Source: a virus
Lineage: Duplodnaviria > Heunggongvirae > Uroviricota > Caudoviricetes
Length of the DNA: 64,000 bases
Reading direction: 5' to 3' (one strand)
Virus record (IMG/VR): IMGVR_UViG_2799112923_000001
Made by a program: the position numbers and the translations under genes. The notes beneath the pieces were generated by a model. It was not told the DNA's origin, did not search any database, and saw nothing but the letters and a program-made list of their open reading frames with translations. Shown one piece after another: positions 15,010-42,140 of this stretch (positions are counted from its first letter, which is position 1; each line of letters begins with the position of its first letter).

Positions 15010-15075
15010 TGTAAACTATTTTTTACATTATTACACGAAAATTGGGTTGACAAATGACCCAATTTTTTCTATATT
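15010..15075 (+). promoter_or_regulatory. Palindrome + promoter cassette upstream of ligase N-half
   Basis: Palindrome 15010-15027; TTGACA 15047 inside hairpin AAAATTGGGT/ACCCAATTTT; TATATT 15070. Confidence 0.85.
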
Positions 15076-15104: not shown

Positions 15105-16220
15105 ATGGCAAATCGCATTAAAGAATTGGAAAACGAAATCAAGAAAAACCAGGAACTGTACTATAACGGAAACGAGGTAATTTCCGATGGGGAGTTTGAT
15201 GCTCTGGTTGATGAACTCCAATCCCTTGACCCGGAAAATCCCCTTTTGACTACTCTCATTGGTGCTGACCATACCGAAGGTTTCGCAACTGTTGAACACC
15301 GCATTTTGATGGGTTCTCAGTCAAAAGCAAATACAGAAACTGAAATGAATGATTGGATTTCCACCATTAACCCAAAGAAGGTTCTCGGTGGATTTAAGAT
15401 GGATGGTTCTTCCCTGGAAATTTGGTATGACGATGGTGTTTACACGAAAGCTGTGACCCGTGGTGATGGAATTACTGGTGATGATGTTACAGAAAATGTA
15501 CGCAAAATGAACTATGTTCCGAAGAAGCTCAAAGAAAAGTATACTGGCGTTGTTCGTGGAGAAGTTCTTCTTCCTCGTAAGAATTTTGAAAAGTATTTTA
15601 AGGGAAAATACAAGAATTGCCGTAATACCGCTACGGGTGTTATGAAGCGAATTGACGGTAGTGATTGCGACAAGTTGGATGTGGTTGTTTACGATGCTCA
15701 GTATCTTGACAACAACAAAGAATTTGGCACTCAGGAAAAACTCGTTAATTTCTTTGAAAAGAATGGTTTCAAGGTTGCGGAATACAAGTTCTTTGATAAT
15801 CTCACGGGCAAGAAGGCTATGGATTATCTCAAAGAAATTTTTGATAAGTTTGATGATTTGGAATATGACATTGACGGTATCGTTTGGAAGCAGAACGAAA
15901 TTGATATGAACGATATGCGTACAAATGCTCGCCCAAAGACGAATATCGCACTGAAGCCCGCCAAGGTTTACAAACAAACGAAACTCGTAAACATTGAATG
16001 GCAAATGAAGAATGGTACATTGACCCCTGTTGCTATTCTTGAACCTGTTGATTTACAGGGTGCCACGATTAAGAGGGCTTCTCTCTGTAATGTTGCTTGT
16101 TTGGAAGAAATGGGAATTGAAATCGGACACACCGTGACGATTTGCCGCTGTGGTATGATTATTCCGAAGATTGTGAAGGATAACACTACCGGCAAATATG
16201 CTAGTGGTTATGAATTTTAA
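15105..16220 (+). CDS. ligA: NAD-dependent DNA ligase, N-terminal part (Ia, adenylation and OB domains)
   Basis: YY..ISD.EFD, KMDG, TRGDG..G.DVT, VRGE, RN.A.G, DGIV.K, G.LTPVA.LEPV, IIPKI; no Zn finger/HhH/BRCT. Confidence 0.9.
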   Translation: MANRIKELENEIKKNQELYYNGNEVISDGEFDALVDELQSLDPENPLLTTLIGADHTEGFATVEHRILMGSQSKANTETEMNDWISTINPKKVLGGFKMDGSSLEIWYDDGVYTKAVTRGDGITGDDVTENVRKMNYVPKKLKEKYTGVVRGEVLLPRKNFEKYFKGKYKNCRNTATGVMKRIDGSDCDKLDVVVYDAQYLDNNKEFGTQEKLVNFFEKNGFKVAEYKFFDNLTGKKAMDYLKEIFDKFDDLEYDIDGIVWKQNEIDMNDMRTNARPKTNIALKPAKVYKQTKLVNIEWQMKNGTLTPVAILEPVDLQGATIKRASLCNVACLEEMGIEIGHTVTICRCGMIIPKIVKDNTTGKYASGYEF

Positions 16221-16442: not shown

Positions 16443-16973
16443 ATGAAAGCAGTTTACGCAGGTTCTTTTGACCCAATCCACGCAGGCCACATAGACATTA
16501 TAAGGAGAGCAGTTCGCTCATTTGGTGGCATTACACTATTGTTAGCAGATAACCCCAGCAAGACGTATCTAAGGGGCAGGAATGAGCGGGTAAAATGGGT
16601 TCGTGAAATTCTTGACCAGGCCGGTGTGAATGGTGTAACCATTGACATTCTTCCAGCAAACGAATTTCTTGCCGACTACTGCTCAAAGAATGGAATTACC
16701 CATATCGTCAAGGGCCTTCGTAATGGTACAGACCTAGAAAGCGAAATGACCCAGGAATGGTACACAAAGAAGATGAATGAAAATGTTGAAACGATTTATT
16801 TTTCAACAAATGAAAAGTACAAGTATCTTTCTTCTTCCAGTATCAAGGCTCTTACTAAAATGAATAAGCAGGATTTCATTAACTATATGAAGAAAATCGC
16901 ATACATTGATGGTATGAGCGAAGAACGAATGGATGATTATCTGTGGACTATCCACACTGTTTATGGAGGCTAA
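16443..16973 (+). CDS. coaD: Phosphopantetheine adenylyltransferase
   Basis: AVYAGSFDPIHAGHIDII, NPSK, VKGLRN..D..E, ETIY, LSSS motifs. Confidence 0.85.
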   Translation: MKAVYAGSFDPIHAGHIDIIRRAVRSFGGITLLLADNPSKTYLRGRNERVKWVREILDQAGVNGVTIDILPANEFLADYCSKNGITHIVKGLRNGTDLESEMTQEWYTKKMNENVETIYFSTNEKYKYLSSSSIKALTKMNKQDFINYMKKIAYIDGMSEERMDDYLWTIHTVYGG

Positions 16974-20121: not shown

Positions 20122-20145
20122 TGTAAAAAACAAATGAGGTATTTA

Positions 20146-20982
20146 ATGAACGAATTAGCAACTATCGCAAAATCCCACAAATGGAATCTCCCCACTGTAT
20201 GCCCGGTTTGTGGTGGCGAACTGGTTTTGAGTGATAATCACTGCCAGCTCAAATGCTCTAACGATTTCTGTAAATCCAAGTATGCGGGTCGCATTAACAA
20301 ATGGACTAATACGATGGATATTAAAGAATTTGGCGGTTCTACCATTGACAAACTTATTGAAAACAATGTGATTGACTCCATTTCTTCGCTCTACACTATG
20401 GATTTGGAAAAGATTGCTACTATTCCTGGTTTTGGTGTTCGTTCTGCCGAAAAGATGAAGAAAGAACTGGATGCCCATAAGACTATGACCTTGGCAAAGT
20501 TTATCGCTGGCTACAACATTGATAGCATTGGCGAAAAGGTCATTGAGAACATTATTAAATTCTATGGATTTAAGAAGTTTGAAGATTTCTTTGGTTCTAA
20601 TTCTTCTCAGCGATTTGTGTGTGATGGTGTAGCTGCTATCACATCCAAGAAACTCCACGAGGGTTTGAAAATGCTGAAGAAAGATATGGAAAAGACCCTA
20701 AAGCATGTAACGATTAAGGCTGCCACTCCCAAGAAAATTGCTGTGGGTGGTTCGCTGGGTGGTAAATCTTTCTGTTTCACCGGTGCTGCTAGTATGCCTC
20801 GTAAGGAGCTGTGGGCATTGGTTGAAAAGAATGGTGGTGTTATCCACGAATCTATGAAGAAAGATACTGATTATCTTGTTCTCGCCGATGTAAATTCTAC
20901 TTCTAGCAAGGCCGTTAAGGCTCGTAAGCAGGGAACTACTCTTTTGAGTGAAGATGATTTCGTAAAAATGTGTGGTAAGTAA
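20146..20982 (+). CDS. ligA: NAD-dependent DNA ligase, C-terminal part (Zn finger, HhH, BRCT)
   Basis: P..CPVCG..L...C.N..C, MDIKEFG, IPGFG.RSA, IDSIG, GKSFCFTG..KKDTDYL..SSK..KA..G; GAGGT RBS before ATG 20146. Confidence 0.9.
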   Translation: MNELATIAKSHKWNLPTVCPVCGGELVLSDNHCQLKCSNDFCKSKYAGRINKWTNTMDIKEFGGSTIDKLIENNVIDSISSLYTMDLEKIATIPGFGVRSAEKMKKELDAHKTMTLAKFIAGYNIDSIGEKVIENIIKFYGFKKFEDFFGSNSSQRFVCDGVAAITSKKLHEGLKMLKKDMEKTLKHVTIKAATPKKIAVGGSLGGKSFCFTGAASMPRKELWALVEKNGGVIHESMKKDTDYLVLADVNSTSSKAVKARKQGTTLLSEDDFVKMCGK

Positions 20983-24293: not shown

Positions 24294-24998
24294 ATGAAAC
24301 TAAATGATTTGATAGACCCTTCCAATACAAAACAACGAATAGCAAGATATAGAGAAAAAATGAATGACGAGATTTATTCATTTTTAGATTCGTTTAAGTG
24401 TAATGGTGAAGAACTTGTAGTGAACCAGTTGTATGATGGTGGTTCTGATAAGAAAAAAATTTATATTGATAAAATGTGTTATAGAATAAATTTTGCTGAT
24501 AACCCAGGATTTCAAAAGATTGCTGAAAAATTGCGAGGCGAAATTCGTGTATCTGTTGGTTATGATATAGAAGTTAGGGTTAAAGTTCCTTCAATGAATA
24601 TGTTAAGCAATTACAACAATTATATTAATGATGTTGTAACGTCTAAACTGAATAATACAGAAATTCATACTTGGGGTACTACTGATTTTTGGATAGAACC
24701 ACAGGTCATTACAAAACGAGTAATGACAGTTCCCACAGCAACAAAGTATATTCAAAAATTCTTTGATTTCTCAGTTGATACAATTCAAAAGGGATTGACA
24801 TGGAGCCAGTCAAAAGAAATTCAAGATGTGATTGAATTTACATATCAAAAGAAATTAGTAATAAAAGATTACGATAACCAGATAGGAAAATTGTGTACTG
24901 AACGAAACAAAATAGAGCGAGAACTGGACACATATAACGGAAAGTTGATTGAAAATTTCAAAAAAGAACGAGAAATGATGAAAGATTTCCAAATGTAA
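24294..24998 (+). CDS. DF-tail family protein, long type
   Basis: Ends EMMKDFQM. Confidence 0.7.
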   Translation: MKLNDLIDPSNTKQRIARYREKMNDEIYSFLDSFKCNGEELVVNQLYDGGSDKKKIYIDKMCYRINFADNPGFQKIAEKLRGEIRVSVGYDIEVRVKVPSMNMLSNYNNYINDVVTSKLNNTEIHTWGTTDFWIEPQVITKRVMTVPTATKYIQKFFDFSVDTIQKGLTWSQSKEIQDVIEFTYQKKLVIKDYDNQIGKLCTERNKIERELDTYNGKLIENFKKEREMMKDFQM

Positions 24999-25059
24999 AG
25001 AAATTTTTACACAATTTTACATTATTTCTATTGACAATGGACTAACAATTTACTATATT
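24994..25059 (+). promoter_or_regulatory. Palindrome + promoter cassette upstream of pncB
   Basis: Palindrome 24994-25011; TTGACA 25031; TATATT 25054. Confidence 0.85.
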
Positions 25060-25089
25060 ATACTCAAACTTTAACAAAAGAGGTAAACT

Positions 25090-26499
25090 ATGGCAATTAC
25101 AAAGGCAAAGCAGATTAAGAAGAATGACATTAAGAAGCAGAAGCAGGTAAAGAAGGTAGCCACCACCACGAAGAAGCCCACGAAGCTCAAGGTCCATGAT
25201 GGTGCGGATTTTTATGCTCACAAGCATATCATAAACTATCTTACAGAAACTGATCTTTACAAGTTCACCCAGCAGCAATTTTATGTTCACCGTCGCCCAA
25301 ACGATAGAGCGAAGTGGGAATTTAAGTGCCGAACCAAGGGTGTGAATCTCGCTCCACTCTGTAAGCGAATTAATGAAGAATTGGATTGGCTTTGTTCTTT
25401 GAAGTTCCAGTCTTGGGAATTGGATTGGTTTAAGAAGCAGGATTATTTCTCTCACGATTATGTGGAATTTCTTGAAGATTTCCAGTTGAAGCGCCGTCAT
25501 ATCAAGTGTTTCACTGACAAGAAGAATACCACTCTCTTTGTAGAGGCAGAAGGTTCTCAAAAGAATGTTTCTCCGTTTGAGATTTATGTTCTCCATATTG
25601 TTCAGGCTCTTTGGATGGCCGATGAAGAACTTGATTGGGAAAAAGCAAAAACAAATCTTGACAACGAAATTATGAAGGTCAATGCTGCTACCCGAGCTGG
25701 CATTATTTTCACGATTTCCGATTTCTCTGTTCGCCGCACTATTTCTTCCGACTGGGAAGATTATATGGTTGGTCGCATGTTGGCTATGTGCCCGGCATTT
25801 GTTGGAACTAGCAACGTCTATCTCGCCATTAAGCATAACTGCAAGGCGATTGGCACCTTCGCTCACGAATTGGATGCTACCTACCAGGGATTGGATAGTG
25901 TGCCGGTAGCAAATGCCCAGAAGCAGAAGCTCACAGATTGGGCAGACGAATACGATGGCAAGTTGGGTATCGCACTCAGCGATAACTATGGTTTCAAGAG
26001 TTTCTTGGAAGATTTCGGTCTCAAGTTCGCAAAACTCTTTGATGGTTGCAGGCACGATAGCGGTGACCCAATTCGCTGGGGTGAGATGTTGATTGCCCAT
26101 TACAAGAAGTTGGGCATTGACCCTCGTTCCAAGGTGGCATGTTGGAGTGATAGTCTTGACATTGACAAGGCTCTCGCCATCGCAAAGCACTTCAATGGTC
26201 GCATCAAGATTGCTTTCGGTATCGGAACATATCTCGGTGCCACTGTATGTGGAACAAAGAAGAAGCCATTGAGCATGGTTATGAAGGTTGTGGAAGTTAA
26301 TGGTAAGCCAGTTGTGAAGCTCTCGGATAGCACTGGTAAGACTATGTGCCACGATGAAGGCTACATCAACTATGTTAAGGCAGTCTACAACTATAAGAGC
26401 ATTGACGATATGACTACTGAAGAAATTCGTGCTATGCTCCCTGCTTTCGTAGATGTTTGGCTCAAGGACATCTACACTCCAGTTGGTGAAGCAGCCTAA
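25090..26499 (+). CDS. pncB: Nicotinate phosphoribosyltransferase
   Basis: TDLYKFT, DFS.RR, GTSNV, GTFAHE, IALSD, G.RHDSGDP, SDSL, FGIGT, K.VEVNG.PV.KLSD..GK; K-rich N-terminal extension. Confidence 0.92.
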   Translation: MAITKAKQIKKNDIKKQKQVKKVATTTKKPTKLKVHDGADFYAHKHIINYLTETDLYKFTQQQFYVHRRPNDRAKWEFKCRTKGVNLAPLCKRINEELDWLCSLKFQSWELDWFKKQDYFSHDYVEFLEDFQLKRRHIKCFTDKKNTTLFVEAEGSQKNVSPFEIYVLHIVQALWMADEELDWEKAKTNLDNEIMKVNAATRAGIIFTISDFSVRRTISSDWEDYMVGRMLAMCPAFVGTSNVYLAIKHNCKAIGTFAHELDATYQGLDSVPVANAQKQKLTDWADEYDGKLGIALSDNYGFKSFLEDFGLKFAKLFDGCRHDSGDPIRWGEMLIAHYKKLGIDPRSKVACWSDSLDIDKALAIAKHFNGRIKIAFGIGTYLGATVCGTKKKPLSMVMKVVEVNGKPVVKLSDSTGKTMCHDEGYINYVKAVYNYKSIDDMTTEEIRAMLPAFVDVWLKDIYTPVGEAA

Positions 26500-26831
26500 T
26501 GGATGTAACAGAATATAAAAAATTGAGTGAGATTAGATTCCATATACAACATAATGGAGTCTACTTACTCAAATTTTATAATCTGTATAATACCCATAAT
26601 GATAAACTTTTAAAGGCTTTTATTGAAGAATTTGATTACGAAGGTTTCTGTTCAGTTGAAGGACAAAAGTTAGATTTGGATTATGTTTTAGAAATAGTCA
26701 AGTCTAAAACAGAAAATGTTGTAACAAACAAAGTAATTGAATTGATTAAGAAAGATGTGAATACAGACCTTTTAGTAAAAGAAATAAAAGCATTTGTAAA
26801 TGAACTAGCCATAAAGAAAGACTTTGATTGA
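26499..26831 (+). CDS. DF-tail family protein
   Basis: Ends AIKKDFD. Confidence 0.7.
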   Translation: MDVTEYKKLSEIRFHIQHNGVYLLKFYNLYNTHNDKLLKAFIEEFDYEGFCSVEGQKLDLDYVLEIVKSKTENVVTNKVIELIKKDVNTDLLVKEIKAFVNELAIKKDFD

Positions 26832-27150
26832 GAGGTACACAATGTTTTGGAAAAAGAAAACTCCCCAAATTGTTGAACCAGTATATTTGAAGAATGACAA
26901 GGGTGCACTCGTTGGTGTTCGTATGGGAGAGAAGGAATTTCGTCTCGCAGCATACGATTTAATGATGTGTAATAACCCAGGTCAAAAGATTATCTACATG
27001 TATGACAAGTTGGGAAACAAAGTTGCCTGGGATATCAGATCTTTTGAAGAACTAGACAATATGTTGCGAACAAGTTTCCAGCCACAATAAAATTCACCTT
27101 TGGTTTATTCATTGGTTTTGTGGCTAATAAATAGATTAAAGGAAAATTTT

Positions 27151-27600
27151 ATGAAAGAATTAAGTTGTGGTTTTATTATTGTGAATAAAAAGAATCCAAA
27201 ACAGATTTTGGCTTGCCAGCCAAATGGAAGAAAGGCCAACTGTTTTGGTAATTATGATATTCCAAAAGGACATATTGAAAAGGGCGAAACCACCTTGAAT
27301 GCCGCAGTTCGTGAATTACAAGAAGAAACCGGCTATAAAATCAAGAATGAACAAATTTATGATTGTGGTCTTTTTCAGTATATAAAGAATAAAGATTTGT
27401 ATGTTTATTTGATGTTCTCAGATCTTGACATTGGGTCATTACATTGTGATAGTACATTTGAATTACACGGTAGAATGGTCCCGGAAGTAGTCAATTACAA
27501 GTGGACTGACGATGTTCGTTTATTCTATAAATCTTTACAACCAATTATTGAAGAATGTTTAGACCACTTTGAAGAAGGATATTATGAAGAAGTTAGTTAA
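27151..27600 (+). CDS. Nudix hydrolase
   Basis: SCGFII and Nudix box PKGHIEKGETTLNAAVRELQEETG. Confidence 0.9.
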   Translation: MKELSCGFIIVNKKNPKQILACQPNGRKANCFGNYDIPKGHIEKGETTLNAAVRELQEETGYKIKNEQIYDCGLFQYIKNKDLYVYLMFSDLDIGSLHCDSTFELHGRMVPEVVNYKWTDDVRLFYKSLQPIIEECLDHFEEGYYEEVS

Positions 27601-27714
27601 AGTTTTATTTGGTGTTTTGGGTGTAACTGCTACAGTTTACTTTTTCAAGCAGGAAAAGAGAACTATCAAGAATTTACGCCGAAACATTGATGAACTAATC
27701 AAAAAGAAAATGGT

Positions 27715-28329
27715 ATGATTACTATAACAAATGATGTTCCATATTGCAACGAAGAAATAGATTTATCTGTTATCGCAGATATTTTCCATAAACTATTTCC
27801 TAGTTATAATCTAACAAACAAATTATCTTTGACTCATTATAAAGACAAAGATTATTTCTCATTAACCGGTTGGTGTGGTGATTTGAAACCTTCAATTCGT
27901 AAGATAATTGAACAAACACCACTAATTGAAGACTGGGAAAATGCTGAATGTTTGCGTTTTAGATTTTGTTATGAAACAAATAATAATAAATGGTGTGCCG
28001 ATACATGGAACACAGTTTGTAAGTATTTTATCTTTAACATGGATGGCAAATATAATTTAGTTCAGCAGAACGATTATCACCGAATGTTGCCAGTTTATGA
28101 GAATCACTTTTCAGGATTTTCTACAGCAAGAAAATATCTTACAGATAGTGAAGAAAAAATGAAAAAAGGGTTTAACTGTGTTAAACATTTGTGTAAAATG
28201 CTTAAAGATGGTGGAATTATGGCTAATCTTGAAAAATTAACAGAAATGCGAGATTCCATTAAAGAACTTGAAGAAAAAACACTACAAATGATTGACACTT
28301 ACGATAAAATTAACTCAGATTTCAATTAA
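27715..28329 (+). CDS. DF-tail family protein, long type
   Basis: Ends KINSDFN. Confidence 0.65.
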   Translation: MITITNDVPYCNEEIDLSVIADIFHKLFPSYNLTNKLSLTHYKDKDYFSLTGWCGDLKPSIRKIIEQTPLIEDWENAECLRFRFCYETNNNKWCADTWNTVCKYFIFNMDGKYNLVQQNDYHRMLPVYENHFSGFSTARKYLTDSEEKMKKGFNCVKHLCKMLKDGGIMANLEKLTEMRDSIKELEEKTLQMIDTYDKINSDFN

Positions 28330-28395
28330 TGTAAACAATTATTTACACAATTTATACATTGGGCTATTGACAAATAGTCCAATTTTTTCTATATT
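28330..28395 (+). promoter_or_regulatory. Palindrome + promoter cassette upstream of nadD-Nudix
   Basis: Palindrome 28330-28347; TTGACA 28367 in hairpin; TATATT 28390. Confidence 0.85.
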
Positions 28396-28429
28396 TAACT
28401 TAGATAACAACAAACCAAGAGGATTAACT

Positions 28430-29515
28430 ATGATTTATTACTATGGACTTTCTGCCGACCCAATTACTATTGCCCACATTGACATTCTTAAATCCATTTA
28501 CAAGCGCCTGGGTGAGAACGATAAACTCATGATTGGTGTTGTAAACAATGACGAAAAGAATTACAAAGCTCTCGGCTCCGACCGAATGGCTATGGTGTTT
28601 GAAATGCTCCATGCCAAGTTTGATATGGAAAAGGGCAACATTGAAGTTAAGAACCAAAACGATAGAACATACAAGTTCTTGTGTGATTATATCGCAGCTA
28701 ATGATTTGACCATGAAGGACATTACTATTGTTGTTGGTCAGGACGAATGGAACTCTCTTTGTTCCGGTAAGTGGGTTAATTGGGACCTGCTTTTGAAGCA
28801 TTTTGAATTTCTTGCTTTTTGGCGAGAAGGAATGGATGACACGATTGTTATGCCTAAGTTTGGTGTGAATGTTGAATTTACATCTTTCAACATTACCCAT
28901 TCTGTTAGTTCGTCTAAGGTTCGTGATATTCTCTCCCGAAACCCCGATTGCCACTATGAAGATGTGAAGGATTATATCACTCACCAGGCGTTCCGTTATA
29001 TCAAGGAACACAAACTCTACAACCAAAATTCGTTTGACTATGATAAGGAAGAAGCAAAATTTCTCCAGGATTACGCAGTAGCCAAGCAGAAGAATGGTTG
29101 GGGTGAACCATCGGTCACCACAGATACGATTGCTTACAATGGCGAACAGATTTTGCTAATTCGTAGAAAGAAACCTCCATTCCAAAACTTTTGGGCCCTA
29201 CCTGGTGGTTTCTTTGAAAAGACCGACGAAGATTTGAATTATGGTGCTGCCCGAGAACTTCGTGAAGAAACATCTCTTGATATGGACCCGGAACAGTTCG
29301 TACAAATTAAGACCTATGGACACAATTTTGACCCGCGTATGAAGATTGTTGATACTGCGTTTAGTGTTCGTATTCCAAAGAAGATGATGGACAAGGCAAA
29401 AGCTGATGACGATGCTGCTGAACATCGTTGGTTCAACATTAACGATTTGCCGAAGCTTGCTTTCCACCACGAAATGATTATCAAGGATTGGCTTCGCAAG
29501 AAGGAGAACTCCTAA
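28430..29515 (+). CDS. nadD: NadD-type nicotinate-nucleotide adenylyltransferase fused to ADP-ribose-type Nudix hydrolase
   Basis: GLSADPITIAH, VVGQD..W..W, SSSKVR, YIKEHKLY; then PSVTTD, LLIRR..PF..WALPGGF, ARELREET, DPR, DDA, LAFHH. Confidence 0.85.
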   Translation: MIYYYGLSADPITIAHIDILKSIYKRLGENDKLMIGVVNNDEKNYKALGSDRMAMVFEMLHAKFDMEKGNIEVKNQNDRTYKFLCDYIAANDLTMKDITIVVGQDEWNSLCSGKWVNWDLLLKHFEFLAFWREGMDDTIVMPKFGVNVEFTSFNITHSVSSSKVRDILSRNPDCHYEDVKDYITHQAFRYIKEHKLYNQNSFDYDKEEAKFLQDYAVAKQKNGWGEPSVTTDTIAYNGEQILLIRRKKPPFQNFWALPGGFFEKTDEDLNYGAARELREETSLDMDPEQFVQIKTYGHNFDPRMKIVDTAFSVRIPKKMMDKAKADDDAAEHRWFNINDLPKLAFHHEMIIKDWLRKKENS

Positions 29516-29736
29516 TGGAATTGATTTCACTGTTAATGATTGCTAACATTGTAGTTCATCTCGGGCCGTTCCTGGGGCTATTCCTGCGAAGCACGAATAT
29601 GCTAAAGTTCATGCTCATTACAGATGTAATCATTACATTAGCCAACATTTTCTGTTGCCCAATTTCCGCTATCATTTGGGGATTTATGACCTATGTAGAC
29701 TGGAAAGAACATGGCTACATTTTCAGGGGGTAATGT

Positions 29737-30156
29737 ATGTTTCGTTATGACAAAGTAGAAAAAGTATGTAATAAATACGGCTATTTGATTGAATTGTGTA
29801 CATACAATTACTCAAAGAGGTTCGTAATTCTTACATACGATACACGATGCAAACAGGGCAAAGTTCCAGTTGGCTATATTGAATTTGAAGATATTATTAC
29901 AAGAGATGGTGTTCAGTATGTAAAGAAAATTCATTTGTATAGTGAATTAACAATGAATGTTGAAAGCAACAGTATCAAACCTGAAGATTGGCATGCGAGT
30001 GAACACGAATTTTATTTGTTCTTGGTGAAATGGCGACTGAAGAAATTCCGTAAACAAATTGACGATTTTGATTCCCATATCACTTTTTTAGAAACACATA
30101 ACAAGAAACAAAAAGCAAACAAACTAGAAATGGATGCTGACAAAGATTTCAAATAA
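29737..30156 (+). CDS. DF-tail family protein
   Basis: Ends DADKDFK. Confidence 0.7.
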   Translation: MFRYDKVEKVCNKYGYLIELCTYNYSKRFVILTYDTRCKQGKVPVGYIEFEDIITRDGVQYVKKIHLYSELTMNVESNSIKPEDWHASEHEFYLFLVKWRLKKFRKQIDDFDSHITFLETHNKKQKANKLEMDADKDFK

Positions 30157-30711
30157 GGAGAAATAACTATGAAGTTTAAGACTGTAATCTATGTAACGAA
30201 AGATAACTCCCCAGGCATTGATTCATGGGCCGAAAAGAAGTACGATGAACAGTTTAATCGTATTGATGGAACGGTAGAAAATGAAGAAGAATGGAATAAA
30301 TTTTGGACTGATGTAAAGACCAATTTGGTAGATAACATTGATACTTCGCCATATTTTATTGCTATGGTTTTCAATGAACTCGGCGATAACATTATCAATT
30401 TCTCTGCTGAAGATTTATCAGATGACCCAGATGCTATGGGCTATGGTTCTTCTTATGGTAAGGATTGGAGTTGGGTATCTACCAAGGAGCCATTACAGAC
30501 AAAAGAAGAATATGAAGAATGGCAGGAGAATTTCTTTTAATGGTTTCCAAGTACATTCACTATTTCAAATTTACAGATGGTCATAACGATTACGAAGCCA
30601 AAATTGAAAACGATGACGATGCTGAAACATTCAAGAATTGTGTAAATCGTTGCCGGGAAAAGGTTTTCGGACCTGCTGGTATTTCTGTAACGGAAATTAG
30701 AACGGAGTTGC

Positions 30712-31092
30712 GTGATGATTAAACTTAGAAGAATTAGCGAAACTGAGTTTATTAATGCTCTTGAAAAGACTGCTCGGGAACTGGGTTATACAGTAGAACG
30801 AAAAGACTATACTGATTTCAAGGAAACATACACATTCCAGGTGTTTCATACTATGAAACTTCCAACACATAAAAACGAAATTTTGGGTATCATTAAAACT
30901 TTTACGGATGGTGATACTGAATGTTGGAGATTCCAATTCAATAAAGATGACCATCCTGATTGGGCTATGTGTGGTATAAGATTCAATTATAAGTATTTGG
31001 AAATTTTCAAGAAGTATCTAATTGAGTTTTCAAAGAACTATAAGCAGTATTTGGAATGGCAAAATCTCAAGGACTTAAAGGAAGATTTTTAA
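30712..31092 (+). CDS. DF-tail family protein
   Basis: Ends DLKEDF. Confidence 0.7.
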   Translation: MMIKLRRISETEFINALEKTARELGYTVERKDYTDFKETYTFQVFHTMKLPTHKNEILGIIKTFTDGDTECWRFQFNKDDHPDWAMCGIRFNYKYLEIFKKYLIEFSKNYKQYLEWQNLKDLKEDF

Positions 31093-31469
31093 TGAAGAAA
31101 GAAATTTCTTTTAAAGATTATCGTCAGTTTATGCTAGACCAAGGACTATCTTATGAAAGTTCTATTGATTATGATGAAGATGCACAGCTTAATGGTTGGG
31201 TATTTAAACATGGTCAGTATACATTCTATTTGGTTGATTTGACTGAACCAATGCGACCAAATGACATAGAACCTTCAATCTATGAATTTGCTGAAGGGTT
31301 TAACCATGAAACTATGGAAATTAACCAGCTCATTACAGATGACGATGAATATGCTGCTAAACACCCAAAGACTTTTAAAGAATTTAAAAAGATGTTAACT
31401 GAGAGCATTAAAGATTTGAAATCCTATGTAAATCAGATTGACATTGATAAAATCAAGGAAGATTTCTAA
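31092..31469 (+). CDS. DF-tail family protein
   Basis: Ends KIKEDF. Confidence 0.7.
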   Translation: MKKEISFKDYRQFMLDQGLSYESSIDYDEDAQLNGWVFKHGQYTFYLVDLTEPMRPNDIEPSIYEFAEGFNHETMEINQLITDDDEYAAKHPKTFKEFKKMLTESIKDLKSYVNQIDIDKIKEDF

Positions 31470-32857
31470 TGGATATTATTAAAGAAATAGTTATGATATT
31501 ATTGTTGGTTGGTGTTTTAGGCACACTATTTAATTTGTTTGCCGGCGCCGAGTTGGAAGGATATTTCAGCGAAAAAGTTGTTTTTGTAATAATTGGTATT
31601 TTGTATGTGTTGGAAATCGTCGGTTGCCATTATATGTTTAAATGGGACCGAGAGTCAGCAGAAGAAAGACGAAGAACTGCTTATGTTATTCACATTGAAC
31701 CAGATGGCGAAACATGTGAAGGACGATATTATTCGGGTAAGAATAGCCCTATAACAGTTAAATGTTTAGATGGCAGAACATATATAGCACAATCTATACA
31801 AGTTATTAAAGAAATTAAACTCAAACATCCAGTAAAATAAGGAGATAAAATTATGATGATGATGGAAGATAAGTATTTTCGTCACTATCCCGATTCGGAC
31901 AGTTATAACCCAAAGGATGTTAAGAATCCTGAAGCCATTGGCGAATGGTTGTTAGCATATAATAAGATTTATGAATTGTGTGAAAAGTATGGTTGTAAAG
32001 CCTGGGGTAATACTGACCTCGGTGGAAAACTCAACCCAATTCTCACACCTGATGAAATGCGAACAAAGTTATACAAACAGTTTGATAATGGTGAAGATTT
32101 TTGTGAATTTATCGGACCCACCATTGATAATTTTAACTATTTTGACCCAACACTAACAAAGTATGCTTCTAATGGTCCTTGTTTGAAGATTTGGGTTGGT
32201 ACACGAAACAAGAACCAGATCAGATTAAAGAAACCAATTATCGTTACTAAATTTGAAATGCCAGGTTATACAATCCCCGATTTTTCTGTAAACATTGATA
32301 AAGAATGCGGTGATGAAGCCATTGATGGCATTATGGTTCCAGTCGCAACATGCCCAACTAACTATCACTATTGGGAAAACAAGGAATGGAATTTTGACGA
32401 ATTCAGTTCCGAAATTGATAAGTTTGATGCGTTTATGGAATTGAACAAGAAAGAATATGAACCAGTTCTGTTGGAATTGAGAAAGAAGATTTTAGCAGGT
32501 GGTGATATTGAAGTTCTTTGTAAAGAAGTAAATGACAAATACAATCTAGGATGGCAAATTGGTAGCATGTTCTAATATCTTTAACCAGGTCGCACAAGAT
32601 TTTGGTTTAACTATAACTGTTCACGAGGACAGTAGTGTAGGGAAGTTTCAAAATTTTCCTGGGTTCGTAATTGCTAGTAATTTCAAAGACGGAAGTATCT
32701 TATCTGCGATGGCATTCAATGAGAAAGAAAAATGTTTTTGGGGAGCCGAAGCATATTACGATGAAACTAAACTTCGTGAACATGTAGCCAAACTAATTCA
32801 ACTGGCAAAGAACTCAATTATTGAGCATAAACTGGATAATATAAAAGAGGATTTCAA

Positions 32858-33271
32858 ATGTTTGGCTTCTTTAAAAAACGAAACCCAAAACCAAAACTAA
32901 CACCTGAAATAGTAAAGAATTTTAAAGAACAACTTTCTAAGTTGGATGGTGTATATTTAGGAACAGACTATGACCCTGACGATTATAATATATGCGAAGG
33001 GTTATTGTTCTTTTCTTTATACGAAAAATTTTATATAGATGTAGAACCTGTATCTAATTATTCCGACATTTCAGGTATTAAAGATTATAATGGGTGGGTT
33101 TTTAAATTGTGTAAAGGTGCTTATGTTTACAGAATTTATACGAATATATCTGATGTGATTAGAGAATATGATACATTCCATGACATAACTGCGATTGACC
33201 CATACGATTTAGAGATAAAACAACACAAATTGGAAGATAAACTGAACCAAATCCAACAAGATTTTGAGTAA
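32858..33271 (+). CDS. DF-tail family protein
   Basis: Ends QIQQDFE. Confidence 0.7.
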   Translation: MFGFFKKRNPKPKLTPEIVKNFKEQLSKLDGVYLGTDYDPDDYNICEGLLFFSLYEKFYIDVEPVSNYSDISGIKDYNGWVFKLCKGAYVYRIYTNISDVIREYDTFHDITAIDPYDLEIKQHKLEDKLNQIQQDFE

Positions 33272-33337
33272 TGTAAACATAATTTTACATAAAAACCCAT
33301 AAAATCCATTGACAAACACATTAAAAATTACTATATT
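33272..33337 (+). promoter_or_regulatory. Palindrome + promoter cassette upstream of pncA/nadE
   Basis: Palindrome 33272-33289; TTGACA 33309; TATATT 33332. Confidence 0.85.
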
Positions 33338-33377
33338 AACAATACAAAAAGAAAAACAATTTAACAAGGAGTTAAAA

Positions 33378-33917
33378 ATGGCCCGACAGATTATTGGTGT
33401 TGACAATCAAATTGATTTTGAAACTGGAGCACTTCCTAACCCTAAGTTTGTAGAAACTTTGGAGTATCGTGTAAATCTCTGTAAGAACGCAGAACGCCCG
33501 GTGGTTCTCACTGCCGACACTCACACAGAAGAATATATGGAAACTCTTGAAGGTAAGAAGCTCCCGGTTCCCCATTGTATCAAGGGAACAGAAGGTTGGA
33601 AGCAGACCCAGGCAATTCTCAACGCATGTAAGAATCCAATTATTGTAGAAAAGACTACATTTGGTTATGACAAGTGGAAGGAAATTTTTGGTCTAGCTGA
33701 AGACATTGACGAATTTTACATTTTCGGTACTGTAATGCCAATTTGCCCATTTGCTCAGGCTATCGGATTGCGTATGGCATATCCAAATAAGCGAATCATC
33801 GTGGATTTCGCTGGTTGCGGTTTTATGGGAAACACTCCCGAAGAAATTGAGTTCTGTAAGAAGGCAACCAAGTATGTTCTTACTATGCAGCAGATTGATG
33901 TAATCAACGCGGACTAA
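33378..33917 (+). CDS. pncA: Nicotinamidase (isochorismatase family)
   Basis: VD.Q.DF..G.L, DTH, PHCI.GT.GW, K.TFG, G....IC catalytic pattern; AAGGAG RBS. Confidence 0.8.
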   Translation: MARQIIGVDNQIDFETGALPNPKFVETLEYRVNLCKNAERPVVLTADTHTEEYMETLEGKKLPVPHCIKGTEGWKQTQAILNACKNPIIVEKTTFGYDKWKEIFGLAEDIDEFYIFGTVMPICPFAQAIGLRMAYPNKRIIVDFAGCGFMGNTPEEIEFCKKATKYVLTMQQIDVINAD

Positions 33918-34237
33918 AAGAATGTACGAAAAGATTAATGTAAATGCGATTTATCCCCAGTATTCCGAACTGACCTCTTGGAATGGCGAAAAGCGAAAGA
34001 TGTTAGTTTGGGATAACATGGGTGGTGAACCCAAGGTAGCATTTGTAACAAATTATGTTGCTGGCATTTGGGTAACCAAGGAACAAGTGGGATATTTCCA
34101 CGCCGCAGAAATTCCACAGGGATAGAATGAAAATAATCATTGGAATTATTTTATTACTAATCGTTTGTTTTCTAACCGCTATTAAGAACGCAGACGATAA
34201 CGCAAACAACCACAAAGAATAAAAAGGAAAAACAACT

Positions 34238-35002
34238 ATGAACAAAATCACTACTGATGCAATTGAATGGATTAAGAACTACTTCAAGACTACCAATGGT
34301 CGCAAGGCCGTAATTGGTATCTCGGGTGGTAAGGACTCTACCGTGGTAGCAGCTCTTTGTGCCAAGGCACTCGGAGCGGAAAATGTTGTTGGTGTTCTCA
34401 TGCCAAATGGTGTTCAGTCCGATATTGCTGATTCCGAATTGGTTGTAAAGACCCTCGGAATTGAGAGTTTGGTTGTAAACATTCAGTATGCTTACATGAA
34501 CCTGGTAAACCAGATCAACGAAAAGCATATTTCTAGCCAGGCCCAAATCAATATGCCTCCCCGTCTCCGTATGACAGTTCTCTATGGTGTGGCACAGAAC
34601 ATTGGCGGTCGTGTTGCTAACACTTGCAATCTCTCCGAAGATACTGTGGGTTACGCAACTCTCTATGGTGATAGCGCTGGTGACTTCTCTCCACTCGCTC
34701 GTTTGACTACTGAAGAAATCGTTGCCATTGGTGATGACCTTGGTTTGCCATACGAACTTGTTCATAAGACTCCGAGTGATGGTCTTTGTGGTAAGACCGA
34801 TGAAGATAATCTCGGCTGCACCTACCACGAAATCAATGAACTTATCCGTAAGGGAGTCAAGGGTCCGAACTACGATTTGATTATCAAGAAGTACAAGGCA
34901 AACAAGTTCAAGACGGACATCATTCGTATTCCAGCATTTGAACCAACGAATCCTCTTCTTCCCAACTACATTCACGAAATGGATAACGCAGGAGCCCTCT
35001 AA
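34238..35002 (+). CDS. nadE: NH3-dependent NAD+ synthetase
   Basis: GISGGKDS, GVLMP, N..PRLRM..LY, T.N.SE..GY.TLYGD, K.PSDGL..KTDE..LG. Confidence 0.93.
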   Translation: MNKITTDAIEWIKNYFKTTNGRKAVIGISGGKDSTVVAALCAKALGAENVVGVLMPNGVQSDIADSELVVKTLGIESLVVNIQYAYMNLVNQINEKHISSQAQINMPPRLRMTVLYGVAQNIGGRVANTCNLSEDTVGYATLYGDSAGDFSPLARLTTEEIVAIGDDLGLPYELVHKTPSDGLCGKTDEDNLGCTYHEINELIRKGVKGPNYDLIIKKYKANKFKTDIIRIPAFEPTNPLLPNYIHEMDNAGAL

Positions 35003-36565
35003 TGAATACAAATGAACTAATTGCTATGGCATCAAAGTACAAGAACTTCAACGATTTTGTTCGGGCTTATGCCGAATCAAAGAAGGGGTAAACTATGTTT
35101 CTCATTAAACTTGCATTCTTAATTAACCAAGCTGGTTTCGCAGCTTTCATGTTCTTGTTTGGAATTGCCCTCTATGTAGGAAAATTTCTGTACAAGACTG
35201 TACTAACACCTGTTCTTTGGGTATTGTGGCAGGGTGCTAAACTAATGCCAGAAGAAAAGGCCGACCCAAATCCACATGCTCTTGAAAAGATGGGAAATGC
35301 TTTTGCCAAGGGTGTATGTGGTGTAATGGATGGTGTAATCTTTAAGACAAAAGAACTGGAATGTGAAAAGTGGCTTAAAGAACACCCGGAGTTTAAGTAA
35401 TGGCATTAAAAGTATCACCAAAGGACACAATAAGTCCCAGATGGAAAGCCAATGAAATTTTCCATTGGTTTCGCCCAAACGAAATTGAATTATATTTCGT
35501 TTGTGGTAAATGTGGTACTACAACTAAAGTAATTTTCAACAAAAACATTCTACCGAATATCAATGGTAATTGTTTGAAATTTGCTTGTGAATCGTGCCGA
35601 GAATCAAACGCAGTAAACATTTGTTTATTAGAGGAGTAAAACTATGGAAGAAGTAATTGGATCTGGATATGAACAGGAATCAATTTCCGAACAGGTAAAG
35701 AATAAGGTCAAAGAAATCAAGAACTCAAAGGTCTATAAGGACATTTTCTCTCACCCAATTACGGGTTGTTATGAACACCAGGACGAAAACGGAAATTGGG
35801 TAGAAGGTCCGGCACTCGGTCACAGCTATCATGGTGGCTATGACGAATATCACGAACAACATAAATCCAAGCTTGAAAAGTGGCTTGAAGAAAAGGGGGT
35901 TCTCTAATGAATTGGTTAGTTAAGAGAATTCTGTTTATTCTTGTAATGTGTATTGGTGGTATTTCACTAGCCAACTGGCTTTATGGTCCTGTATCAAATG
36001 GATTCGCATTTGTTTATGGAATGATAGTCGGTGTTGCCGGTGCTATTCTATTCCCAAGAGAAGAAGAGGCGGATGAATAAATGGCGAAGGATAAGTACGA
36101 TAAGAAAGAAATTATCAAGCAGTTAAGAAATCTCGTTGCCAGCGACTCAGTCAAGTATGATGCTACTAGATTGGCTAAGGTAGAAAACGAAATTAACCAA
36201 ATGAACGATGACCAGATTAATCGTGCGTTGTTGTTAGCTGAGTTTCAATCTGCCCTAGTCCGAGAAAATTATTTTGACTGGACACCGGAAGAACTTAATG
36301 TAATCCAAGCTGCCATTGAATCATGTGGCATTAAGATTAACGAAGTCAAGAAAATGGACAAAGAAGATGGCCGAGACGATTATGCGTTTGTTCTTGATGA
36401 CGATTTGAAAGTTGTATGGGTGAACAAAATGAACCCATTCATCAAATCTGGTATATATAATCTATTGGGTGTTGGGTTGAATTTCCCTTGTAATAACTAC
36501 CAAACAGTAGAAGAACTTGGGTCAGCCGTAGTTGAAACAATTAAAAAAGTAAGAGAGTACATGTA

Positions 36566-37805: not shown

Positions 37806-39140
37806 ATGGATAAGAAAACTTTCGGTTCAAATTATATTAACTACATTTCCGCAAATAAGACTGAACGAGAATGTGTTAGTGACGCAGTTGTTAAGGCTCG
37901 TTTTAATGGTTTCTTGACTATGAAGGAAATCAAGGCACATCATAACGATTTGCGTGTTGGTGATAAAGTTTATTTTGTAAACAAAGACAAGAATTTCGCG
38001 GCTTTTATTATTGGTAAGGGATTTGGCACCAGTGGTATTAATTTGCTCGGCGCCCATGTAGATAGCCCAAGATTGGATTTAAAGACCCAGCCACTCTATG
38101 AAGATGGTGATGTGGCTTATTTTGATACTCAGTATTATGGTGGAATTAAGAAGTATCAGTGGGTAACTCGCCCATTGGCAATTCATGGTAAGGTTTGTTT
38201 TACCGACGGTTCTAGTTTGAATGTAGTAATTGGCGAAGACCAAGCTGACCCAATTTTCTGTATTAGTGATTTGCTTCCACATCTTGACAAGAAACTTGCT
38301 GAAAAGAAGGCTAGTGATTTTATCTCTGGTGAAAAGTTGGATTTGATTGCAGCAACAGAAGCATTGGATACTGAAGACGAAAAGGAAAAGGTTAAGAAGA
38401 ATGTAATCGCATTACTCAAACAGAAATACGATGATAGATTTGAAGAAACTGATTTTCTTTCTGCTGAATTGGAAGTAGTTCCAGCCGGTCCTGCTCGTTG
38501 GTGTGGTTTGGATAAATCTTTGATTGCTGGCTATGGTCAGGATGACAGAGTTTGTGCCTATACTTCTCTTATGGCTCTAATGGATATGAAAGAAGTTCCC
38601 GAAAGAACTTGTGGTTGTGTTCTCGTAGATAAGGAAGAAGTTGGTTCTATTTGTGCTACTGGTTCCGAATCTCGTTGGTTGGAAGATGTTTTGTACTGCG
38701 TAAGTGGTGCTACAAACAGAATGAGTTTTGCTACTATGTTGTACGAAACTGACATGCTTTCTAGTGATGTAACTGCCGCTTATGACCCACAGTTTGGTGA
38801 TGTTTCTAACAAGGGTATGAGTGCTAAACTCAATGGTGGTTTCGTTCTTTCCAAGTACAATGGTGGTCGCGGTAAGGGTGGTGGAGCAGATGCTAACCCA
38901 GAGTTCATCGCAAAGGTTCGTAACATTCTCAACACCGCAAATGTTAAGTATCAATTTGATACTATGGGCAAGGTAGATGTTGGTGGTGGTGGAACTATTG
39001 CCTCTATCGTTTGCCGTTTGAACATTAATGTAATGGATGCTGGTGTTCCAGTTCTCAACATGCACAGTCCAATGGAACTCACTGCCGTTGAAGATGTTTA
39101 TGACGCATATCTCGGCTATTGTGCTTTCTTGAGGCACTAG
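37806..39140 (+). CDS. M18 family aminopeptidase
   Basis: KTERE, GAHVDSPRLDLK, YYGGIKKYQW, GQDDRVC, DKEEVGS, SSDV, MHSP.E. Confidence 0.92.
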   Translation: MDKKTFGSNYINYISANKTERECVSDAVVKARFNGFLTMKEIKAHHNDLRVGDKVYFVNKDKNFAAFIIGKGFGTSGINLLGAHVDSPRLDLKTQPLYEDGDVAYFDTQYYGGIKKYQWVTRPLAIHGKVCFTDGSSLNVVIGEDQADPIFCISDLLPHLDKKLAEKKASDFISGEKLDLIAATEALDTEDEKEKVKKNVIALLKQKYDDRFEETDFLSAELEVVPAGPARWCGLDKSLIAGYGQDDRVCAYTSLMALMDMKEVPERTCGCVLVDKEEVGSICATGSESRWLEDVLYCVSGATNRMSFATMLYETDMLSSDVTAAYDPQFGDVSNKGMSAKLNGGFVLSKYNGGRGKGGGADANPEFIAKVRNILNTANVKYQFDTMGKVDVGGGGTIASIVCRLNINVMDAGVPVLNMHSPMELTAVEDVYDAYLGYCAFLRH

Positions 39141-39651
39141 GAGTGAATATGAAAGAATTCACAGGACATGATTTAACAGAAGAAGATTACATTTCTTTGT
39201 ATGGAATGACAAGAAAAGAACTGTATGAAGAATTGTACTGGAATCAAGAACACCATAAATCTCAAATGGAAAAAGTTGAAAAGCAAAAATCTGCTTGGGA
39301 TGAATTATATGGTGGCGACCATGTAATGTGTGGTAATAGTTGGGACCCGTGGAATCGTATGGGTATTTCCTGGAAACTCTATAACCAGTATAAGACTGAA
39401 CGTGGCTATTCTGATGAATTTATTGAAGAAACGATAAAATCATCAAGTTATGAACCACTAAAAACTTTGGCTGAAAGAGTTGAAAAATGGAGGAATCTCT
39501 AATTTTCACCCGAATTTAATGGTTATACATACTAAACAATGGTAATAAAGAAGTTCTAAAAAACAAAATTTTTATTACTATGATTGTTTTATTTGCTATA
39601 TTAGCATATACATAAAACAAATAAATGTAAACCATTAAATGAGGTGAAAAT

Positions 39652-39868
39652 ATGAATGATTACGAAGTAATTGAAGGCGAAGACATCCTTTCCAATTCAT
39701 TGAGAGCAATTAAGCAGTACATTCCACGCAAGTTGGACGAAGCTACAAAGCATGCCCCAACACGGAGATAAGTCTACTCCACAGTATCAGTTGAATGCTG
39801 CATATAACGAAGGTTATAAGAAGGCTCTTGAAGATTTGGCAACATTCATCAAGGCTATGGGTGTTTAA
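39652..39868 (+). pseudogene. Small gene interrupted by a +1 frameshift
   Basis: GAGGTG RBS; frame 0 stops at 39771; +1 frame continues HGDKSTPQYQLNAAYNEGYKKALEDLATFIKAMGV. Confidence 0.55.
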
Positions 39869-39872
39869 GATT

Positions 39873-39961
39873 TGTTTGGCTCAGCCCACAGTCAAACAGG
39901 ATATAATACACGAACGTGGTTATATCTAAACAATGTGGGCATTGTGTTACGAAAGAACACA
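39873..39961 (+). ncRNA. Candidate structured leader RNA upstream of hsp20
   Basis: Three hairpins and a GCCCAC/GTGGGC long-range pairing. Confidence 0.4.
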
Positions 39962-39973
39962 GAGGTTAAATAA

Positions 39974-40456
39974 ATGATTAATACAGGTAATATGTTTGGT
40001 AATGATTTCCAGGCTCTTGAACAGCTAGCAAACGCAGCTTCTCAGGCTTTCGGACAACCATTTCCCGCTACAACTAAACTAATTGAAAAGGCTGCTGCAA
40101 AAGTAGATTTTCCATTGGATGAATACATTGACAAGGACGGCAACTATGTAGCTGAATTAGCAGTAGTTGGTGTAGATGCCAATGACATTAAGGTTACTGT
40201 TAAGACCGAAGGTGGTAAAAAGACATTGACCATCAAGATTGATGCTCCTGAAACCACAGACGAACAGAAGGCCGAAATTGAATCCCGTGATTGGATGAAC
40301 AGAAAGATTAAGAGATTTACTAAACTTGAATTGACACGTTCTCTTGCTAATAATTTGGATGTTGCTAAAACAACAAAGACTATTGACAAGGGATTGTTGA
40401 AGGTCTTTATTCCTATCAAGGAAGAAGAAAAACCCATTGAAATTGAAGTTAAGTAA
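39974..40456 (+). CDS. Small heat-shock protein (Hsp20/alpha-crystallin)
   Basis: FP.D.Y, ELAVVG....I.V, R.I.RF, DKGLLKV.IP. Confidence 0.8.
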   Translation: MINTGNMFGNDFQALEQLANAASQAFGQPFPATTKLIEKAAAKVDFPLDEYIDKDGNYVAELAVVGVDANDIKVTVKTEGGKKTLTIKIDAPETTDEQKAEIESRDWMNRKIKRFTKLELTRSLANNLDVAKTTKTIDKGLLKVFIPIKEEEKPIEIEVK

Positions 40457-40469
40457 ACGATAACAGTAA

Positions 40470-42140
<1,671 letters not shown>

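Follow-up and report, generated by a model that had tools for sequence, protein, structure and literature searches.

Can a single phage genome supply every enzyme needed to rebuild nicotinamide adenine dinucleotide (NAD+) from nicotinamide by way of deamidated intermediates and, if so, what would such a set be for? The question is raised by positions 25090–35002 of a 64,000-nucleotide stretch of DNA, hereafter the window, from the IMG/VR virus record IMGVR_UViG_2799112923_000001 (Caudoviricetes), where the original prediction, made from the letters alone, had placed four NAD+ salvage enzymes and two Nudix domains. Family, motif and fold data confirm all of them within this interval, with three gene starts corrected, and the set appears, as had been proposed, to form a coherent deamidating pathway that runs all the way from nicotinamide to NAD+. 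Our reading, which we give a probability of about 0.72, is that the region is a self-sufficient, phage-encoded NAD+ salvage module of the deamidating (Preiss-Handler) type, carried by a jumbo phage of the ruminant gut. The enzyme families, motifs and folds, and the conservation of the genes as a set, are direct observations. Searches with Pfam and NCBIfam place five NAD-related genes here, all on the + strand:

25090–26499, + strand: PncB, predicted nicotinate phosphoribosyltransferase, 469 amino acids (NCBIfam, alignment with 1YIR)
27151–27600, + strand: free-standing Nudix hydrolase, 149 amino acids (Pfam NUDIX, E 6e-13; PHROG 1185, E 7e-26)
28430–29515, + strand: fusion of a predicted NadD-type adenylyltransferase (residues ~1–200) and an ADP-ribose-type Nudix domain (residues ~228–361), 361 amino acids (Pfam, TIGR00482, AlphaFold2 (AF2) model)
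33378–33917, + strand: PncA-like predicted nicotinamidase of the cysteine-hydrolase fold, 179 amino acids (profile, motifs, AF2 model)
34238–35002, + strand: NadE, predicted NH3-dependent NAD+ synthetase, 254 amino acids (TIGR00552, Pfam, PDB)

PncB exceeds the cut-offs of two NCBIfam models (NF003704, 426 bits against 379; TIGR01514, 349 bits against 269.6), and its nearest solved relative, aligned along its length with an E-value of 1.4e-73, is PncB2 of Pseudomonas aeruginosa (1YIR), whose phospho-histidine motif GTMAHE is matched by GTFAHE in the window protein (consensus GTxAHE). All six of its PDB matches are nicotinate phosphoribosyltransferases (NAPRTases), and the PHROG label "nicotinamide phosphoribosyl transferase" attached to it reflects a partial match (E 5e-19). 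Relatives have just one gene of the NAPRTase family, the window's version being of the PncB type, and PncB is 77–92% identical in relatives. The original prediction would have failed with a nicotinamide-using enzyme at this position; NF003704, TIGR01514 and 1YIR point the other way, homology favoring nicotinate as substrate and hence a PncB-type enzyme over a nicotinamide phosphoribosyltransferase (Nampt). The N-terminus of the protein is a lysine-rich, low-complexity extension of ~45 residues (25090–25224) that bacterial PncB lacks, the alignment with 1YIR beginning at residue 45; in relatives, the length of PncB ranges from 431 to 475 amino acids.

Entry from nicotinamide would depend on the PncA-like protein, which when searched alone matches PncA of Pyrococcus horikoshii weakly. 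A database search retrieved 354 homologues, most of which carry the isochorismatase domain PF00857, down to 36% identity. In an alignment of 24 homologues, the catalytic triad D9/K92/C123 and the metal ligands D47/H49/H66 are invariant; the triad aligns to the active site of 1ILW and the ligands align with the DWH...H of P. horikoshii PncA. The profile of these 24 sequences retrieved 1ILW first from the PDB (E 2.4e-17), with Bacillus subtilis PncA (5ZN8/6A8L, 1e-14), yeast Pnc1 (1.4e-14) and the nicotinamidases of Streptococcus mutans, Mycobacterium tuberculosis and Streptococcus pneumoniae among its further matches. The AF2 model has a mean predicted local distance difference test score (pLDDT) of 95.9, and its top 12 structural matches include the nicotinamidases of B. 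subtilis, P. horikoshii, yeast, Acinetobacter baumannii and S. pneumoniae, with template modeling (TM) scores of 0.73–0.79. An Asp-x-His...His metal site distinguishes nicotinamidases from other cysteine hydrolases, and it is this site that carries the call, because other amidases of the same fold score similarly to nicotinamidases against the model. We accept the protein as a predicted PncA-type nicotinamidase.

Since PncB yields nicotinate mononucleotide (NaMN) and NadE acts only on nicotinate adenine dinucleotide (NaAD), the route requires an adenylyltransferase that accepts NaMN, and the candidate is the N-terminal domain of the fusion protein, in which Pfam recognizes CTP_transf_like and NUDIX. 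The NadD models of NCBIfam rank first across the full length of this domain, TIGR00482 aligning from end to end (positions 2–194 of 194), whereas the NadM-Nudix models match the Nudix part only. In the AF2 model of the fusion (pLDDT 78), the N-terminal domain superposes best on NadD-type NaMN adenylyltransferases (NaMNATs), 3E27 and 5LLT giving TMt scores of 0.75–0.76, and all of its best single-domain matches are NaMNATs (3E27, 5LLT, 5DEO, 1YUL, 1KAQ and 2H29; TMt 0.65–0.76). These alignments support the NadD-type assignment made in the original prediction. The signature of the domain is TxAH (TIAH, with Ala for Gly relative to (H/T)xGH), invariant in 20 homologues, and the SxxxxR motif is kept as SSSKVR. 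The C-terminal domain lies nearest to NadM-Nudix proteins and ADP-ribose-bound NrtR (among the structures, 2QJO, 2QJT and 3GZ8), retains the Nudix-box pattern REx2EE as RELREETS and is matched by the NCBIfam models PRK05379 and NtrR. It would thus belong to the ADP-ribose-binding NadM-Nudix/NrtR clade, in agreement with the ADP-ribose-type function suggested earlier, and is a predicted ADP-ribose pyrophosphatase. The fusion family is large, with 1,686 homologues at E ≤ 1e-5; both domains are present in all 120 homologues listed, many of them on contigs of 100–370 kb. Judged by profiles and model together, the protein is a NadD-type-Nudix fusion, parallel to the NadM-Nudix fusion exemplified by NatV of phage KVP40 and distinct from it.

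NadE is identified by TIGR00552 (162 bits, cut-off 63.7) and by Pfam NAD_synthase (1e-50). It has the P-loop SGGKDS in a single domain of 254 amino acids with no glutaminase domain, and its nearest PDB matches are NH3-dependent NAD synthetases (2E18, E 2e-35). The free-standing Nudix hydrolase has the canonical Nudix box GHIEKGETTLNAAVRELQEETGY and is syntenic in relatives, where it is 56–77% identical; in the PDB it finds only weak counterparts, the nearest of them MutT/NUDT15-like (E 4.5e-5).

Taken together, these enzymes would act in four steps. PncA would convert nicotinamide to nicotinate, PncB would join nicotinate to host-made phosphoribosyl pyrophosphate (PRPP) to give NaMN, the NadD-type domain of the fusion would adenylylate NaMN to NaAD, and NadE would use ammonia to turn NaAD into NAD+. 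The fused Nudix domain most likely would cleave ADP-ribose to AMP and ribose-5-phosphate, which would remove the other product of NADases and return carbon towards PRPP. The likely purpose would be to uphold the NAD+ pool of the infected cell and to supply the NAD-dependent DNA ligase of the phage, and also to buffer the cell against loss of NAD+, including loss caused by SIR2/TIR-type defenses. Substrate preferences, flux through the route and any counter-defense effect are what we infer.

How firmly do the five genes belong together? Synteny was compared between the window and five related contigs found via PncA, PncB and NadD-Nudix (L001, L003, L015/L008, L016/L007 and L017/L009). The genes for PncB, Nudix, NadD-Nudix, PncA and NadE occur in identical order in all five of these contigs, which come from ruminant-gut jumbo phages, at 54–92% amino acid identity, and almost none of the small open reading frames (ORFs) between the NAD genes are shared. 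A more distant relative, G004 (L027), is a complete record of 415,750 bp with direct terminal repeats, and it holds the NAD set in a different order within ~26 kb. The record carries NadE, a PnuC-like gene, two Nudix genes and no more than one gene of the NAPRTase family. Among cultured phages, a 6-kb segment of Sinorhizobium phage Phosso encodes NadE, PncB, a Nudix protein, a nicotinamide mononucleotide (NMN) adenylyltransferase (NMNAT) and a "hydrolase", the last being PncA-like (hhalign probability 97.9%), and Agrobacterium phage Atu_ph07 has most of the set, namely PncB, a PncA-like gene, a cytidyltransferase and an ADP-ribose pyrophosphatase. Because the set recurs in unrelated jumbo phages with differing gene orders, selection on it is indicated, and the NAD genes are best described, on this comparative basis, as a selected functional module whose grouping is meaningful. 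In G004, the gene for the PnuC-like nicotinamide riboside/NMN transporter (405146–405673) lies far from the Preiss-Handler genes, and that phage may combine two NAD+ routes.

Of the 18 ORFs listed on the + strand of the 10 kb, 13 belong to no family: Pfam, PHROGs and the ESM Atlas returned nothing for the ORFs at 26499, 26842, 27715, 29515, 29737, 30169, 30715, 31056, 31469, 31853 and 33922, and a subset of these three resources gave no match for those at 32559 and 32858. One small ORF is conserved in relatives:

26842–27090, + strand: ORF of 82 amino acids between pncB and the Nudix gene

It is 66–69% identical in L003, L007/L016 and L008/L015 and 56% identical in L023, and matches no Pfam or PHROG family. 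In contigs of four independent RNA-library runs, position 32859 is joined directly to 33268, a gap of 408 bp (32860–33267); strains thus circulate without the 137-amino-acid ORF 32858–33271 just upstream of the pncA promoter, an example of fast turnover of small ORFs. In one relative (L001 and L002, 8954–9490), a histidine phosphatase gene (His_Phos_1, 178 amino acids) lies inside the NAD cluster directly upstream of pncA and has no counterpart in the window.

The window as a whole has a G+C content of ~33%, nearly all of its plausible genes are on the + strand, and its ORFs are mostly small and of no known family, an overall character that is that of a large phage. Its relatives are IMG/VR virus contigs that include some of 375,820, 415,750 and 416,825 bp, and jumbo size is known from these relatives, not from the window's own genome. 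The stretch is present in bovine and sheep gut runs from 13 studies, and positions 24500–35500 are mostly covered by contigs of four metatranscriptome libraries at 90–99% identity. With megablast, the 10-kb stretch found no match among 50,697 phage records, in which relatives appear at the protein level only. No tRNA genes were found in the window, and a Pfam scan of ten further large window ORFs returned nothing. Canonical TTGACA/TATATT promoters and strong Shine-Dalgarno sites in the window point to what we take to be a Firmicutes-like host.

The corrected starts are 27151 for the free-standing Nudix gene, 28430 for NadD-Nudix and 33378 for pncA. The TTG starts originally listed at 28292 and 33309 fall in or upstream of promoters, and the real starts, ATG 28430 and ATG 33378, each stand behind a Shine-Dalgarno site; TTG 33309 is itself the -35 hexamer of the pncA promoter. 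Pattern searches place a promoter cassette before three of the NAD genes:

24994–25059, + strand: cassette before pncB, with the palindrome TGTAAA-N6-TTTACA at 24994–25011 followed by TTGACA-N17-TATATT at 25031–25059
28330–28395, + strand: cassette before the NadD-Nudix gene
33272–33337, + strand: cassette before pncA, with TTG 33309 in its -35 hexamer

Both elements are strongly enriched in the window, TTGACA-N17-TATATT with 16 occurrences against 1.5 expected and the 18-nucleotide palindrome with 18 against 1.1; with an N8 spacer, the palindrome occurs at chance level. From start to start, the palindrome usually precedes the promoter by 37 nucleotides, and by 21–28 nucleotides at three sites. 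The cassette stands before ~14 units of the window, namely pncB, nadD-nudix, pncA, both halves of the ligase and about nine others (for example 7693/7730, 12203/12240, 15010/15047, 24994/25031, 28330/28367, 33272/33309, 44302/44339, 53654/53691 and 63487/63524). The NAD genes are accordingly grouped into three predicted transcription units, each under a promoter of the sigma-70-like type that is standard for this phage. The cassette fits transcription by the host RNA polymerase, and the palindrome looks like a candidate binding site for a dimeric regulator.

A consumer of NAD+ is encoded 4–10 kb upstream of pncB. The NAD-dependent DNA ligase that the original prediction mentions is indeed there, split into two halves that together span PHROG 3869:

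15105–16220, + strand: N-terminal half of the NAD-dependent DNA ligase, behind the cassette at 15010/15047 (PHROG 3869, E 3e-92, positions 7–383 of 656)
20134–20982, + strand: C-terminal half (PHROG 3869, E 8e-52, positions 384–653 of 656)

The halves are 3.9 kb apart, with CoaD, an SLT lytic transglycosylase and small ORFs between them, and the ligase is split in the relatives L003, L017 and L023 as well. The gene at 16443–16973 was considered as a second NMNAT and rejected, being CoaD (TIGR01510, 124.6 bits, cut-off 103.3). A CoaE-like dephospho-CoA kinase at 47981–48766 scores 54.6 bits, below its cut-off of 65.6; CoaD and the CoaE-like protein correspond to the two reactions that complete coenzyme A synthesis, and would represent a second cofactor pathway besides that for NAD+. 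Elsewhere the window encodes, in addition to the split ligase, GroEL, HSP20 and an M18 aminopeptidase; the latter three lie downstream of the NAD module (37806–42140), in an order kept in the relatives L001 and L003 at 39–85% identity.

Several observations weigh against a self-sufficient NAD+ module, or at least limit it. The enzyme activities are predicted for all five proteins. Searched alone, the PncA-like protein reaches only 18.8 bits against PF00857 (E 0.0019), below the gathering score of 27, and the top single structural match of its model is labeled carbamoylsarcosine amidase. The N-terminal domain of the fusion scores 66 bits against TIGR00482, under the cut-off of 112, and has TxAH in place of HxGH, two reasons why NaMN can be named only as its presumed substrate. 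The matches of the free-standing Nudix hydrolase point to no particular substrate. There is, as the original prediction had noted, no PRPP synthetase among the window ORFs scanned, and none in the complete 415,750-bp relative, so that the route depends on PRPP of the host; Pribosyltran_N likewise has no match in the relatives, the complete genome included. Each NAD+ made in this way takes about three ATP, and once made it can still be cleaved by NADases. Regulation specific to the NAD genes is rejected, since the cassette is used throughout the window, before ~14 units that include unrelated genes. The cover of the NAD stretch by RNA-library contigs is compatible with expression and is no proof of transcription, because DNA carry-over is possible and the contigs show neither strand nor transcript ends.

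How else might the locus be explained? That the genes are unrelated acquisitions, decaying remnants or bacterial DNA mis-assembled into a phage contig could be suspected from the 13 familyless ORFs and from the spread of the NAD genes over three transcription units, yet all five genes are intact, their order is kept in five related contigs from different samples, the set is found again in the complete 415,750-bp virus record, the stretch occurs in runs of 13 studies and the catalytic residues are invariant. Synteny and conservation already contradict such an explanation, and we give it next to no credence. An explanation that grants the genes a function and denies the route its autonomy is also improbable, if less remote. 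In this case, the fusion would be an NMN adenylyltransferase/ADP-ribose pyrophosphatase, as in KVP40 NatV and other NadM-Nudix proteins, or an enzyme of some other nucleotide, and PncA, PncB and NadE would feed or need the NadD of the host. The best whole-chain structural matches of the fusion are indeed bifunctional NadM-Nudix enzymes (2QJT, 2QJO and 2R5W), the NadD cut-off is missed and TxAH also recalls the TxGH of phosphopantetheine adenylyltransferase (PPAT). However, the whole-chain matches arise because both domains align, and they superpose poorly (TM ~0.35–0.4, root-mean-square deviation ~16 Å), whereas the N-terminal domain by itself superposes best on NadD-type NaMNATs (TMt 0.70–0.76) and the NCBIfam models divide between the two domains as described above. 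Moreover, the enzymes that would make NMN, Nampt or NadV, are absent, and the sole NAPRTase-family gene is of the PncB type.

A more serious contender accepts the autonomous route and limits it to housekeeping, that is, to the provision of NAD+ for a long, DNA-heavy infection (for the ligase after host shut-off, for example), with no measurable protection from NADase defenses. Its appeal lies in the general nature of the cassette, which stands before many unrelated genes and the two ligase halves as well as before the NAD genes, and in the broad "cellular" metabolic repertoire of the same region, with CoaD, the CoaE-like protein, GroEL, HSP20 and the M18 peptidase. Li et al. see clusters of this kind chiefly as serving metabolic independence and complementing the host, and four steps at three ATP make a slow answer to a fast NADase. 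What makes us doubt that housekeeping is the whole story is that the set takes in both products of NAD+ cleavage, nicotinamide through PncA and ADP-ribose through the ADP-ribose-type Nudix domain, and that the analogous two-step, nicotinamide-based pathway NARP2 overcomes NADase defenses; nor are the roles of supply and counter-defense mutually exclusive. At the other end stands a bolder proposal, that the five genes constitute a fourth kind of phage NAD+ reconstitution pathway (NARP), deamidating, entered from nicotinamide via PncA and in no need of intact ADP-ribose, which could rescue phages from SIR2, TIR and DSR NADases as well as from aRES-type defenses, with the fusion coupling clearance of ADP-ribose to adenylylation. 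Needing nothing but nicotinamide and PRPP, the route might in principle be indifferent to aRES-type defenses, a speculative point, and we advance this extended proposal only tentatively. As a countermeasure to defense, the self-sufficient salvage module favored here is plausible and directly testable, and it is unproven.

How does this module compare with published systems? A 2022 survey of NAD+ and ADP-ribose systems in viruses lists NadV, NadM and NadR as the only phage enzymes of NAD+ synthesis (PMC9503650). In 2024, Li et al. (Microbiome, PMC11662467) presented 174 "NAD-jumbo phages" of the gut in which a salvage or Preiss-Handler pathway is complete, using data from cattle and sheep rumen, and reported clustered pncB-nadD-nadE in jumbo phages, many with an NAD-dependent ligase, and mentioned phage pncA. 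The gene set as such is therefore already catalogued and not new. The phages of that study share with the window and its relatives the gut or rumen habitat, jumbo size, the clustering of pncB, nadD and nadE and, often, the ligase. They differ in that the catalogue is drawn at the KEGG level, with no Nudix domains in the main text, no separation of NadD-type from NadM-type enzymes, no description of PncA as the entry from nicotinamide and no experimental tests; the example clade Kuafu was assigned to Bacteroidota hosts. Two points deserve note here, namely entry through PncA and the fusion of a NadD-type enzyme with a Nudix domain.

NAD+ lies at the center of the conflict between phages and bacteria, and the literature searched offers experimental support for three pathways by which phages reconstitute it, none of them running via deamidated intermediates; no paper was found there that tests the deamidating route against NADase defenses. 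NARP1 (Adps and Namat) and NARP2 (Nampt and Nmnat) were tested by Osterman et al., and NARP2 established that resynthesis of NAD+ from nicotinamide by a phage can defeat NADase defenses. The aRES defense alters the ADP-ribose moiety and thereby defeats NARP1. The label of a "third type", which the original prediction had proposed for the window, is superseded because NARP3, composed of PnuC and NadR, has already been tested (PMC13464706). The further idea that deamidated intermediates might escape NADases finds no support here; the end product NAD+ remains cleavable either way. Of the original interpretation, the enzyme types and the route stand, the "third type" and the novelty of the gene set do not, and counter-defense is something that we only infer.

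Exclusivity with respect to NARP1, NARP2 and NARP3 was checked in the relatives of the window. All three pathways, like the module, are means by which a phage restores NAD+. NARP2, represented by NadV and NatV of KVP40, is the closest: it too is phage-encoded, makes NAD+ from nicotinamide and PRPP and has an adenylyltransferase fused to an ADP-ribose-type Nudix domain. It differs in proceeding by two amidated steps via NMN with a Nampt and a NadM-type enzyme, whereas the predicted route of the window takes four steps via nicotinate, NaMN and NaAD, with PncB and a NadD-type enzyme and with NadE needed in addition. From NARP1 the module is set apart by the lack of a Prs-like Adps and of Namat (among the window ORFs scanned and in the relatives), and by its substrates, ADP-ribose being required in NARP1 whereas nicotinamide and PRPP would suffice here. 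From NARP3 it differs in that neither PnuC nor NadR is seen among the window ORFs scanned; the complete relative has its PnuC-like gene. In two records from the human gut, Phage Phass-1 (L005, OQ749652.1, 96860–101298) and MT835544.1 (L030, 12498–15481), a PncA-like nicotinamidase and a NadE-like gene lie beside a Nampt/Namat-like gene, and Phass-1 also has an annotated Prs-like gene there, a layout like that of NARP1; Pribosyltran_N has no match in either. The arrangement could be a deamidated variant of NARP1, in which nicotinate and ADP-ribose pyrophosphate (ADPR-PP) would give NaAD and then NAD+.

Bacterial salvage through PncA, PncB, NadD and NadE, as in the pncA-pncB1-nadE operon of P. 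aeruginosa, runs through these four reactions with enzymes of these families, but in the window it is a virus that encodes them, the NadD-type enzyme is joined to a Nudix domain and bears the invariant TxAH, and small, fast-evolving phage ORFs lie between the genes. Phosso and Atu_ph07 bring the comparison back to jumbo phages, in this case cultured ones, that hold PncB, a Nudix protein, an NMNAT-family enzyme and a PncA-like hydrolase within a few kb, Phosso having NadE too. Their proteins are ~28–32% identical to those of the window, the adenylyltransferase and the Nudix protein are separate genes, the gene order is another, the hosts are soil alphaproteobacteria, and the PncA-like genes are annotated merely as "hydrolase" or "hypothetical". 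The lineage of the window is widespread in ruminants, the rhizobial jumbo phages hold independent analogues, and the NadD-type-Nudix fusion represents a large family parallel to the known NadM-Nudix fusion; the module offers concrete, well-conserved sequences with which to ask whether a four-step Preiss-Handler route, like the two-step route of NARP2, counters bacterial defense.

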